Assembly (NCBI GenBank): GCA_965200315.1
Contig: OZ241362.1
Span: 3,360,001 to 3,424,000 of the forward strand
Length of the DNA: 64,000 nt
Direction of reading: 5' to 3'
Source of the DNA: Candidatus Latescibacterota bacterium
GTDB taxonomy: Bacteria; Latescibacterota; UBA2968; UBA8231
The notes beneath the pieces were generated by a model. The model worked only from the letters and a program-made list of their open reading frames with translations, had not been told where the DNA came from and did not search any database. The position numbers and the translations under genes were made by a program. Every line of letters begins with the position of its first letter. The stretch's first letter is position 1. Positions 62,275-64,000 of this stretch are shown here, in pieces.

Positions 62275-63228
62275 TCATCTCGGTCGGTAGGGGCTAGTAT
62301 CAATGCCGGGTAGGGTATGCTCCAAAAGGTCTAGGGTTTGGCTCGTGAAGTACGGGTGTCCGGGTTCGGGCCAGCCGAATAGGCCGCGCACTCGGGGTGT
62401 GGTGGCCGTGAAAAACGGCAGCATGTGTTCGCGTTCTCCGTAGATGAAGGGATTGGCGAACCGGGTCCAGCGATCGTTGTCGCGGCGGCATAAAGACAAA
62501 GTCCAAAAGGCGCGTTGCGTGCGCTTGTTGGCGAAGGGTTGCGCCGCGTGGACTAGGTACGACGAGTAGAAGAGGGCCGCGCCACGCCGGCCAGTGGAGG
62601 GGAGCGGAGCGGCTAGTTCGGTGGCTTGGCGCAGGTCTTTGAAGGACCCACCCGCGGCGTTGTCTTGGGCAAGCGCTCGCACAAAAGCGGGACCAGCTAC
62701 TTTGTGCGAGCCGGGGATGACCAGCATGGGGGCACCGTCGTTCTCGACATCGTGCAGATACACCCCCGAATTGACGTAGTCGAAACGGCCTGTTTGGTCG
62801 TAGGGCGGCAGTAGGCAATTGGTGTAGTGGTCAATATGGTAGCCCTCCCAAGGGTTGTCGGGATGACGCCTGTCGGTAGGCCCCGAGCGCATAAAGAGGT
62901 GGGCATTGCAGTAGCTGGCTTTTGCCCCCAAGCATTGTTCAAAAATGTCGAGGTAGGTCTCGTTTTCTATCAGCCGATCCAGAGCTTTTGCGCCCACTGG
63001 AAATTGCGAGCGGCCCTCGGAGTGATCGTGCGTGGTGGTGAAGCCGTCCGAGACCCCAGAGGCGTCGCCGCGGTCGCAATCGGCCAGCCATTGCTCGAAG
63101 GATTGGCCGTAGAAAATCCGTTCCATCGCTGCTAGGGCGGCATCCATCTCATCGGCAGTGAACAGGTCGGGGACGATGATATAGCCGTCGCGGTGGAATT
63201 GGTCGAGTTGGGCTGGTGTTAGGCTCAT
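62275..63228 (-). CDS. PhyH family dioxygenase
   Basis: FHRDGY, YHID, VIPGSH, LVHAA. Confidence 0.88.
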   Translation of the reverse strand: MSLTPAQLDQFHRDGYIIVPDLFTADEMDAALAAMERIFYGQSFEQWLADCDRGDASGVSDGFTTTHDHSEGRSQFPVGAKALDRLIENETYLDIFEQCLGAKASYCNAHLFMRSGPTDRRHPDNPWEGYHIDHYTNCLLPPYDQTGRFDYVNSGVYLHDVENDGAPMLVIPGSHKVAGPAFVRALAQDNAAGGSFKDLRQATELAAPLPSTGRRGAALFYSSYLVHAAQPFANKRTQRAFWTLSLCRRDNDRWTRFANPFIYGEREHMLPFFTATTPRVRGLFGWPEPGHPYFTSQTLDLLEHTLPGIDTSPYRPR

Positions 63229-63340: not shown

Positions 63341-63368
63341 TGAACCTGTATTTTCCGGGCGGCGTCTT
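63341..63368 (+). promoter_or_regulatory. Putative ECF-sigma promoter
   Basis: TGAACC-N16-CGTCTT, 18 nt before ATG 63387; fits the AAC/CGT pattern of ECF promoters. Confidence 0.6.
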
Positions 63369-63386: not shown

Positions 63387-64000
63387 ATGCAAATACCAGA
63401 CCCACAACTCATAGCGCAAATAAAAAACCGCGATGCACGTGCGTTCCAACAGTTGTTTGAGCGCTATCGGGAGCAGGTCCACCAACTGATGGAACTAGAT
63501 TTTGATGGCGATCAAATCGAGGTATTTTTGCCCCTCACTGAGGAAGCCCAGACCGAAGCCGAGACCGCGCTGTCGGTGGGCGGACACATACAGCGCGATG
63601 CGGATATATGGCACTACGTGGCCGACAACTACCACGGCATGATATGGGGCTTGGCGCAGTTGTGCCGCACGGAGGAAGGCCGCGCCGAAGTGGAGCGGCT
63701 GACCGGAGTGGCTGTGGATGGCAGCCGGCTGTTTGCCAAGCACGACCTCAACCGCTTGCTAGCTCAGGTGTTGCAACGCGAGGGTTTGCAGCGAGCGCTG
63801 GAGGTGCTCGACCAGCTAACGCGGCGCGGCTTTGAGGTCTGCAAGCAGTCGGGGGCCTCCTTCAATCCCTTTCTCGGTTCGAGCAAGGAGTGGCCTGAGC
63901 AACCCGAGGAGGCCGATTGGGACGAGTGGCAAATGTACAGCGACGAGTTAGTGGCAGCTTTCTACCATCAGGCCGATTTCGACGACAACGACTTGGGCCC
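63387..64000 (+). CDS. ECF sigma-factor N-terminus fused to a divergent RNA polymerase beta-prime catalytic segment (3' end outside window)
   Basis: Open for 204 codons to the window edge: MQIPDPQLIAQIKNRDARAFQQLFERYREQVHQL|MELDFDGDQIEVFLPLTEEAQTEA...HGMIWGLAQL...KHDLNRLLAQVLQREGLQRALEVLDQLTRRGFEVCKQSGASF. Confidence 0.8.
   Translation, partial: MQIPDPQLIAQIKNRDARAFQQLFERYREQVHQLMELDFDGDQIEVFLPLTEEAQTEAETALSVGGHIQRDADIWHYVADNYHGMIWGLAQLCRTEEGRAEVERLTGVAVDGSRLFAKHDLNRLLAQVLQREGLQRALEVLDQLTRRGFEVCKQSGASFNPFLGSSKEWPEQPEEADWDEWQMYSDELVAAFYHQADFDDNDLG

Follow-up and report, generated by a model that had tools for sequence, protein, structure and literature searches.

A fused open reading frame (ORF) that runs off the downstream end of a 64,000-nucleotide (nt) stretch of a Candidatus Latescibacterota genome (hereafter the window; G000:C1:3360001-3424000) is very probably an in-frame deletion chimera, in which codons 1-33 of a gene for a sigma factor of the extracytoplasmic function (ECF) type are joined to the last ~294 codons of a long gene, whose product combines parts of the beta and beta-prime subunits of RNA polymerase in one chain. 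The source genome (G000) is a metagenome-assembled single contig of 5.36 Mb with an estimated contamination of 7.8%. By itself, the window ORF is a case of ordinary gene decay, and it is the parent cassette that holds the interest. The ORF is an example of a deletion that spans two overlapping genes, stays in frame and so produces the semblance of an exotic domain fusion. This scar pointed to a large family, as yet unnamed, of single-chain beta+beta-prime proteins that are chromosomal, of bacterial type and almost always paired with one orthologous ECF-type sigma factor and one nearly invariant promoter.

Origin of the Fused Open Reading Frame

The ATG at position 63387 (+) opens a frame that is unbroken to the window end and continues for 367 nt beyond it (stop side at G000:C1:3424367), giving a product of 327 amino acids (aa; P0001). 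An earlier note on this DNA had reported this open frame and the DFDGD motif at 63498-63512, both of which were confirmed, the full length being obtained by extension of the contig. The sigma-like N-terminus that the note proposed is also real: residues 1-36 are 78% identical to the sigma factor of an intact relative (G002) and 91% identical to the starts of P0027 and P0028, two ECF sigma proteins from a collection of 5.8 billion proteins that match only the first 10% of P0001. Among the NCBIfam sigma models, matches were confined to residues 2-34 of P0001 and to the first ~35 model positions, and they were weak (E 0.006-0.04); neither Sigma70_r2 nor Sigma70_r4 was matched in P0001 by Pfam, even at E 10. 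One PDB alignment had presented the N-terminal AFQQLFERYREQVHQL as degenerate beta-prime (AFEP.L.EG..IQ.HPL), which was ruled out by the 78-91% identity to sigma N-termini and by the alignment of the underlying DNA to a sigma gene.

The rest of P0001 resembles beta-prime well beyond the pentapeptide. The NCBIfam model rpoC_TIGR (TIGR02386) matched P0001 in three stretches with E 3.9e-11 (41.5 bits, against a cut-off of 963.5), and phmmer against the beta-prime chains of the PDB gave E 4e-8, again in three collinear stretches: residues 19-101 (the DFDGD region), 118-159 (...RGFEVCKQSGASF) and 184-265 (the SGARG/bridge-helix region, past the window end). When only the part of the ORF inside the window was searched, Pfam RNA_pol_Rpb1_2 was found with E 5e-5, under its gathering score. 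The further collinear matches described in the earlier note thus hold up, as does its statement that the ORF is not the housekeeping rpoC and has no adjacent rpoB; the genome has a genuine, canonical pair of adjacent rpoB (1266 aa) and rpoC (1368 aa) genes at a distance of about 2.5 Mb.

Intact relatives, all of them Candidatus Latescibacterota metagenome-assembled genomes, reveal the source of the two parts. In G002, a sigma ORF (P0030, 199 aa; L017:10703-11299, - strand) and a long ORF (P0029, 1053 aa; L017:7545-10703, - strand) overlap by 4 nt and lie in different frames. P0030 contains both sigma domains (Pfam Sigma70_r2, E 1e-15; r4_2, E 1.5e-12) and scores over the cut-off of TIGR02937. 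Alignment of the window locus (L020) with G002 at the DNA level showed that the ORF consists of the first ~99 nt of the sigma gene, followed directly by the long gene from codon ~760 onward. Both flanks of the locus match those of the intact operon in G002 and G011, with ~90% DNA identity, and with this synteny kept the fused ORF aligns only to the two ends of the G002/G011 operon. The protein comparisons agree: P0001 is about 90% identical to the C-terminal ~300 aa of P0002-P0006, and it matches positions 270-573 of P0002 and positions 710-1009 of the 1010 positions of a family profile (alignment A1, 39 diverse full-length members). Homologues of 340-570 aa in the 5.8-billion-protein collection, which are gene-call fragments, are ~90% identical over 92% of P0001 and leave its N-terminus uncovered. 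The stretch missing relative to the intact relatives is about 2,767-2,771 nt long (2767 nt by comparison with L035 and 2770 nt with L028, the closest relatives). The two breakpoints share few bases at most; the sigma gene ends in ...GTCCAC, and the long gene reads ...TGC before and CGACTGATGG after its breakpoint.

The ancestor of this genome carried a two-gene operon, in which the gene for a 199-aa ECF-type sigma factor was followed, with a 4-nt overlap, by the gene for a beta+beta-prime single chain of ~1,050 aa. A single deletion of ~2.77 kb, with little or no microhomology, took sigma codons 34-199 and approximately the first 760 codons of the polymerase-like gene, after which the sigma start codon reads straight into ...LMELDFDGD.... 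Because the sigma gene and the long gene lie in different frames, it was the length of the deletion that happened to restore the reading frame. The earlier note had suggested that this copy arose by in-frame deletion from a longer protein with a beta part, which was essentially correct, except that the parent is two genes and not one chain.

As that note had also recognized, the rest of the sigma factor and the first half of the beta-prime double-psi barrel are missing from P0001: in addition to the absence of both sigma domains, the NRxP barrel half, with its invariant Arg and Pro (P0029 722-724), falls within the deleted part. The two lysines of the beta barrel (GDK..RHG.K) and its acidic pair (FED) are absent as well, residues 1 to ~760 of P0029 having been deleted, and the polymerase matches of P0001 in Pfam and NCBIfam were to beta-prime only, with no beta-like sequence. 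The DFDGD motif of the window ORF is orphaned, since the deletion took both the preceding half of its own barrel and the beta barrel that it pairs with.

Architecture and Active Site of the Parental Polymerase-like Protein

The Pfam matches of P0029 are Rpb2_6 (E 1e-28), Rpb1_2 (E 1.7e-13) and Rpb2_3 (E 3e-6). Its NCBIfam scores are far under the cut-offs for rpoB (153.6 vs. 801) and rpoC (92.1 vs. 963.5), and there is no dedicated model; Pfam and NCBIfam returned polymerase-domain models only, and PADLOC returned nothing for the polymerase-like protein. Compared with the housekeeping subunits of the same genome, the family profile matched RpoB with E 4.3e-52 (profile columns 91-524 to RpoB 395-1262; P0029 89-~476 pairs with RpoB 395-~1185) and RpoC with E 1.2e-33 (P0029 588-996 to RpoC 264-771). 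On the beta side, the fork region (Rpb2_3), EHDD-NR, FED and GDK..RHG.K are kept. Kept on the beta-prime side are the clamp coiled-coil, FSGR, the NRxP barrel half, NADFDGD, the SGAS block, and SGARG with the bridge-helix region. This is the same motif order as in housekeeping RpoB and RpoC, to which the homology is clear, and the family clearly descends from the housekeeping beta and beta-prime subunits. It differs from them in that it is an accessory gene, encoding one chain of ~1,050 aa compared with the 1266 + 1368 aa of RpoB and RpoC in this genome.

Much of both subunits has been lost. No counterpart was found in P0029 for RpoB 1-394, for the flap insert (estimated as RpoB ~787-1026) or for RpoC 1-263. 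Past the bridge-helix region, P0029 has 57 residues left after the last aligned column, vs. ~600 in RpoC. Judged by length, there would be no room for a trigger loop, a jaw or a C-terminal clamp, and by inspection the short tail resembles the conserved block at the very C-terminus of beta-prime. The first ~90 residues of P0029 have no match in the housekeeping subunits, and the chain contains a linker of ~60 residues (525-587). The clamp coiled-coil, which is the docking site for sigma region 2, is retained, with P0029 ~600-645 aligned to RpoC 267-310.

Eight residues are invariant in polymerases with two double-psi barrels: three Asp, the beta Asp, two Lys, and the beta-prime Arg and Pro (PMC2919709). 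We scored these eight sites and a neighboring Glu in the 39 aligned members. All nine catalytic residues are present in 22 of the 39, the G033 protein (L019:7218-10424, - strand) and P0031 being examples of members that have the full set, and the counts for individual sites, in P0029 numbering, are D763 37, D765 37, D767 36, D321 36, E320 34, K344 36, K352 35, R722 29 and P724 32. Because the catalytic residues are conserved across 37-53% sequence divergence, the mini-polymerase is likely to be catalytically active in most lineages.

Two variations in the size or number of the gene product should be mentioned. G107 contains two full-length mini-polymerase matches. In G049 and G050, the match is split into profile segments 1-668 and 654-1009 within one frame of ~1080 aa, with seemingly extra sequence between the beta-like and beta-prime-like halves.

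Distribution, Promoter, and Composition of the Cassette

An exhaustive HMMER pass over 1.84 billion cluster representatives returned 356 representatives at E < 1e-30, a count that includes matches to ordinary rpoB and beta/beta-prime proteins. Among the 150 representatives listed, 63 have a length of 950-1120 aa and share 37-53% identity with P0029. The names attached to members from 20 clusters were "hypothetical protein" and one "sigma factor" (P0178), with Latescibacterota labels and one Chloroflexota label. By profile search, the family gene was found in 66 of the 168 genomes sampled from the phylum, in 19 of the 52 high-quality genomes and in 16 of the 49 genera, and its presence is patchy within the genus of the window (21 of 30 genomes). 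A single-protein query found it in 18 of 24 same-genus relatives; one of the six without it, G018, is 58% complete and gave no match whatever. Five same-genus genomes without the gene have the flanks on different contigs, at 73-77% identity. The family was not found in the phage and plasmid collections, in which only ordinary rpoB/rpoC-type matches with at most 50% cover were obtained.

A scan of metagenomes identified at least 553 stretches that encode a relative, of which 80 loci were kept. Of the 64 loci with at least 700 nt of upstream sequence, 53 have an orthologous sigma gene no more than 150 nt upstream on the same strand, often overlapping. In the remaining 11, the sigma gene lies within 1500 nt in two and was not found in nine, several of which are near-duplicates. 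The sigma orthologues at these loci match those of G002 and G033 with E 1e-29 to 1e-130. No third gene recurs near the cassette: the best neighbor cluster is represented at 10 of the 80 loci and is ABC-transporter-like, by reading of one member. In G033 (family f2), an ORF of 381 aa (L019:10467-11612, - strand) lies between the sigma and mini-polymerase genes; it has no Pfam or PADLOC match and no relative in the 80 loci.

The sigma gene is preceded by the promoter motif TGAAC(C/T)-N14-CGGTGTC, in which the gap from GAAC to GNGTC is always 16 nt. Of 62 loci, 56 were usable, and GAAC-N16-GNGTC lies within 130 nt upstream of the sigma gene in 53 of these. Reversed controls gave 0 of 56, and shuffled sequences gave a mean of 0.14. 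Base frequencies were derived from 43 of 56 sigma-bearing loci, 13 with short upstream sequence or near-duplicates having been omitted, and in the 43 loci the motif lies 16-42 nt before the sigma start. An earlier pattern, GAAC-N15-18-CGT[CT], was matched at 3 of 49 loci and was rejected, the actual -10 element being GGTGTC. Downstream of the promoter motif come an AGAGG-like ribosome site and the sigma start, and the motif is conserved across members 38-55% identical in protein. The GAAC...GTC layout is that of the classic autoregulated ECF promoter.

How the Intact Cassette May Work

The parent module would be a self-contained cassette that consists of an ECF-type promoter, its sigma factor and the mini-polymerase. 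Binding of the sigma factor by the mini-polymerase through the retained clamp coiled-coil of beta-prime is plausible, with a likelihood that we place near but not above even, because the clamp helices outlasted a reduction in which about 60% of the two subunits was lost, and because translation of the sigma and mini-polymerase genes is coupled. A step further, and a tentative one that we consider possible though rather unlikely, is a two-polypeptide holoenzyme, in which a polymerase of ~1,050 aa without lobes, flap and trigger loop would use the ECF-type sigma factor encoded upstream as its own initiation factor, held on the clamp helices, at TGAACC-N14-CGGTGTC promoters. Such a holoenzyme would sit beside the normal polymerase in Latescibacterota and other uncultured bacteria and would presumably dispense with alpha and omega.

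Four observations weigh against an active, sigma-guided mini-polymerase. The flap, the docking site for sigma region 4, is absent. In the window's own genus, NRxP has lost its Arg and Pro (R722S, P724Q), which leaves seven of the nine catalytic residues, and three of the 39 aligned members (P0032, P0035 and P0106) are clearly degenerate. Strict matches to the promoter motif occur genome-wide at chance level when compared with the reversed pattern as a control (6 vs. 8 in G002, 3 vs. 2 in G000 and 5 vs. 0 in G033). Because strict copies elsewhere in these three genomes are at chance level, the operon itself is the only evident target of the sigma factor. One further strict match is common to G000:C1:4625491-4625516 (-) and G002:C1:3313512-3313537 (-); it lies inside a 386-aa frame, on the opposite strand, and is probably due to chance. 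As for the altered active site, P0029 reads YSAQRVL at 721-727 in place of the conserved NRAPT(L/S), followed by 6 extra residues, and the polymerase may already have been altered or weakened in the window's genus before the deletion.

A competing explanation, to which we give a chance only slightly short of even, is that the sigma factor works only with the host core enzyme. The mini-polymerase would then be either the sole product of the regulon, a sigma-independent effector, or a core-enzyme mimic that soaks up the sigma factor; as a mimic, it would be the missing anti-sigma factor and would close a negative feedback loop. The textbook ECF geometry, with its rigid 16-nt spacer at 53 of 56 loci, agrees with a complete core enzyme as the support of sigma 2 and sigma 4. 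The mini-polymerase gene occupies the +1 position, where ECF operons usually carry an anti-sigma gene, and no other neighbor is conserved. The flap, which in the beta subunit holds sigma region 4 (PMC7824862), is missing from the mini-polymerase, and catalytic residues are lost in some members. However, the complete set of nine catalytic residues in 22 of the 39 diverse members, and an Asp triad present in 36-37 of 39, would be needless for a pure decoy. Retention of the clamp coiled-coil in an otherwise drastically reduced protein and translational coupling of the sigma and mini-polymerase genes also speak against dependence on the host core enzyme alone. The missing flap and the rigid canonical spacing would favor a sigma factor that works with the host enzyme, and the lack of any other conserved partner or target leaves room for a sigma factor that serves the mini-polymerase as its initiation factor.

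Either outcome would be of interest. If active, the mini-polymerase would be the smallest known polymerase still recognizably derived from bacterial beta and beta-prime, and the family would be a natural experiment on which parts of a multisubunit polymerase are dispensable, on whether a sigma factor can function without a flap, and on the purpose of a second, sigma-coupled polymerase. If it is a core-enzyme mimic that titrates its sigma factor, it would be a new kind of anti-sigma factor.

Comparison with Known Systems

Natural beta::beta-prime fusions occur in Helicobacter and Wolbachia. Like the family described here, the full-length fusions (NF007172 and NF011417) carry beta before beta-prime in one chain, and P0029 matches the two models with E 8e-45 and 1.5e-42, at 152 and 145 bits compared with cut-offs of 5372 and 4632. 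These models have 2,839-2,890 positions and describe the only, and essential, polymerase of the cell, whereas the family proteins of ~1,050 aa are encoded beside separate rpoB and rpoC.

YonO of the Bacillus prophage SPbeta resembles the family in that it is a single polypeptide of about 100 kDa with both barrels, without trigger-loop homology and without a flap (PMC5467207). No kinship was detectable when the family profile was aligned to SPbeta YonO with hhalign (E 0.42, probability 0.14%, 24 columns around DxDGD), and YonO is described as sharing only a few residues with multisubunit enzymes (PMC5467207). It is also borne by a prophage, with no sigma partner reported in the available text of the source (PMC5467207), in contrast to the family, which is evidently a reduced bacterial beta/beta-prime and chromosomal.

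The nearest architectural analogue, compared here by its published description only, is Orf6 of the yeast cytoplasmic killer plasmids, a fusion of Rpb2 and Rpb1 from which about half of the coding sequence has been deleted (PMC2919709). In both cases, a second-largest-subunit half is followed by a largest-subunit half and roughly half of each is lost. Orf6 differs in its eukaryotic descent, in its location on a linear plasmid and, as far as the available text describes it, in the absence of a sigma factor (PMC2919709).

With ECF sigma/anti-sigma modules, the cassette shares a sigma factor with regions 2 and 4, its own GAAC...GTC promoter and a tightly coupled +1 gene, but its +1 gene is a polymerase homologue and not a known anti-sigma gene. 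We found no description in the literature of a sigma-coupled, cut-down single-chain beta+beta-prime family, although the supplements of PMC7826278 may list the sigma group and its neighbors. The main text of that paper, which reclassifies the ECF sigma factors, contained no mention of it by the terms searched, as far as this text was available.

Fate of the Remnant

The window product would probably be able to act neither as a sigma factor nor as a polymerase, because sigma regions 2 and 4 and the beta barrel are missing and the beta-prime barrel is represented by its second half alone. Its expression is probably low, with weak transcription, because the operon promoter has been retained but the cognate sigma factor has been lost and the genome encodes no close paralogue, the best sigma paralogue in G000 being 32% identical. 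The ORF is most likely a recent loss-of-function scar that is inert and heading to decay, which agrees with how often the cassette is lacking in relatives.

The ORF itself bears no sign of decay so far. The 327 codons contain no stop codon or frameshift, and the sigma start and the promoter motif are intact. The ratio of nonsynonymous to synonymous substitution rates (dN/dS; pairwise NG86) of the remnant averages 0.12 against 21 orthologues, compared with 0.14 among 210 intact pairs, although the value for the remnant mostly reflects its history before the deletion. Several strain variants bear the deletion with an open frame, and the frame could be maintained. Among the deletion-bearing strains, 15 single-nucleotide polymorphisms (SNPs) were found, nine nonsynonymous and six synonymous, which are too few to decide, and the same is true of the six codons unique to the window copy (four nonsynonymous, of which two change positions that do not vary among the other orthologues of the genus). 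The dN/dS values, unique codons and SNP classes are too small a body of data to separate "recent and neutral" from "maintained."

It is improbable, in our view, that selection maintains the open frame because the remnant has taken on a new function other than catalysis, such as that of a bridge-helix/C-terminal fragment that binds a partner or interferes with the host polymerase. The deletion being in frame, the frame being open in every strain variant examined, the dN/dS not being raised and the promoter and start codon being intact all speak for such a role. However, an in-frame result has a one-in-three chance, and after no more than ~15 SNPs many frames under no selection would have stayed open. 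The SNPs are split nine to six between nonsynonymous and synonymous, this copy carries a substitution at a proline that is nearly invariant across the family and is polymorphic among the strains, and the sigma factor needed for the promoter is gone. Moreover, no comparable C-terminal-only copy in an uninterrupted contig was found among the other genomes of the 168 sampled, in which further partial matches were judged from their coordinates to be cut by contig ends. Decay is thus the reading that we retain for the remnant.

Within the remnant ORF, an indel polymorphism of 3 nt (CCA) is located at L020:8183, 182 nt beyond the window end. The extra CCA codon is present in two sequencing runs (X2 and X21, see below) and in the intact orthologues (AATNQ vs. 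AANQ) and has been lost in the window strain.

Sigma-Polymerase Fusions and the Reality of the Junction

The earlier note had interpreted the ORF as one of a whole family of functional sigma-polymerase fusions, which would serve as a self-targeting single-chain polymerase or as a sigma factor with an RNA polymerase mimic attached. This now appears very improbable, even though the open frame begins at a genuine sigma start codon preceded by a genuine promoter motif, the similarity to beta-prime is significant, and one database protein of 1214 aa (P0178) joins a sigma factor to a polymerase. For this copy, the idea of a self-targeting polymerase fails with the loss of the beta barrel, of the first half of the beta-prime barrel and of both sigma domains, only 33 sigma residues being left. 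For the family, every intact relative examined has the sigma factor and the polymerase-like protein as two genes in different frames, and family members reach 1101 aa at most among the 150 representatives listed. We found no homologue that carries sigma regions 2 and 4, beta and beta-prime in one natural chain. The sole such record, P0178, comes from one 5-kb contig (JGI) and is a frameshift product, in which the sigma gene is frameshifted in region 4 and runs on into the mini-polymerase gene. Annotated in the database as "RNA polymerase sigma factor," it has the look of a natural fusion and is a trap for annotators. Four genomes (G150, G159, G165 and G166) have open frames of 1194-1244 aa that were also considered as fusions and rejected; in G166 (L131), the one examined, the frame is a GC-rich read-through with the sigma gene in another frame. 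A search for longer proteins that hold this sigma factor found none, which is weak evidence.

It is scarcely credible that a chimeric or collapsed join at ~63483 conceals an intact operon, as the metagenomic origin and estimated contamination of the single-contig genome and the many deletions that the earlier note saw in the window might suggest, since the junction is crossed by contigs of two studies, one of them from a distinct strain variant, and by short reads of a third. The junction was compared with four public runs, labeled as sponge metagenomes, of which X2 and X21 provide independent support. Single contigs span L020:6800-8800 in X18 and X19 (study P9), which are near-identical to the locus and may be its source data. 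In X2 (study P1), a single contig spans the same interval and represents a strain variant with 11 substitutions and a 3-nt insertion. In X21 (study P10), 117 raw Illumina reads were placed on L020:6800-8800, with a depth of about 8 over the junction bin. Contigs and reads cross positions 63480-63500 unbroken, and no joints or loose ends were seen at the junction in those of the four runs. The deletion exists in the DNA and is common to several strains; it is not an assembly artefact.

Gene Neighborhood of the Locus

The coordinates of the ORF segments and of the adjacent features are given in Table 1.

Table 1. Features of the fused ORF and its surroundings (window positions unless a contig or locus is named).
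Feature	Position	Strand	Basis
PhyH-family dioxygenase, upstream neighbor	62275-63228	-	Pfam PhyH, E 1.9e-15
ECF-type promoter-like motif TGAACC-N14-CGGCGTC, 21 nt before the ATG	63341-63366 (G000:C1:3423341-3423366)	+	Exact pattern match
Sigma-derived 5' segment: start codon and first ~33 codons, all before region 2	63387-63484	+	DNA alignment to the G002 sigma gene
Deletion junction	63482-63485	.	Two local alignments of L020 vs. G002 abut, with a 3-base overlap
Segment derived from the 3'-terminal third of the beta+beta-prime gene (~760-1053 in the orthologue of 1053 aa)	63485-64000 and 367 nt beyond	+	Protein and profile matches
DFDGD, Mg-binding Asp triad of the beta-prime double-psi barrel	63498-63512	+	Read from the sequence; hhalign to NADFDGD of the genome's own RpoC
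Second PhyH-family gene, directly after the ORF	L020:8385-9296	-	Pfam PhyH, E 4.7e-23

The flanking genes are identical in kind and order in the window genome and in G002, and they include the two PhyH dioxygenase genes, an AstE/AspA-like gene and others. The two PhyH genes bracket the locus in the window genome and in its relatives, and between them the cassette seems to be an insert-like unit with its own promoter.

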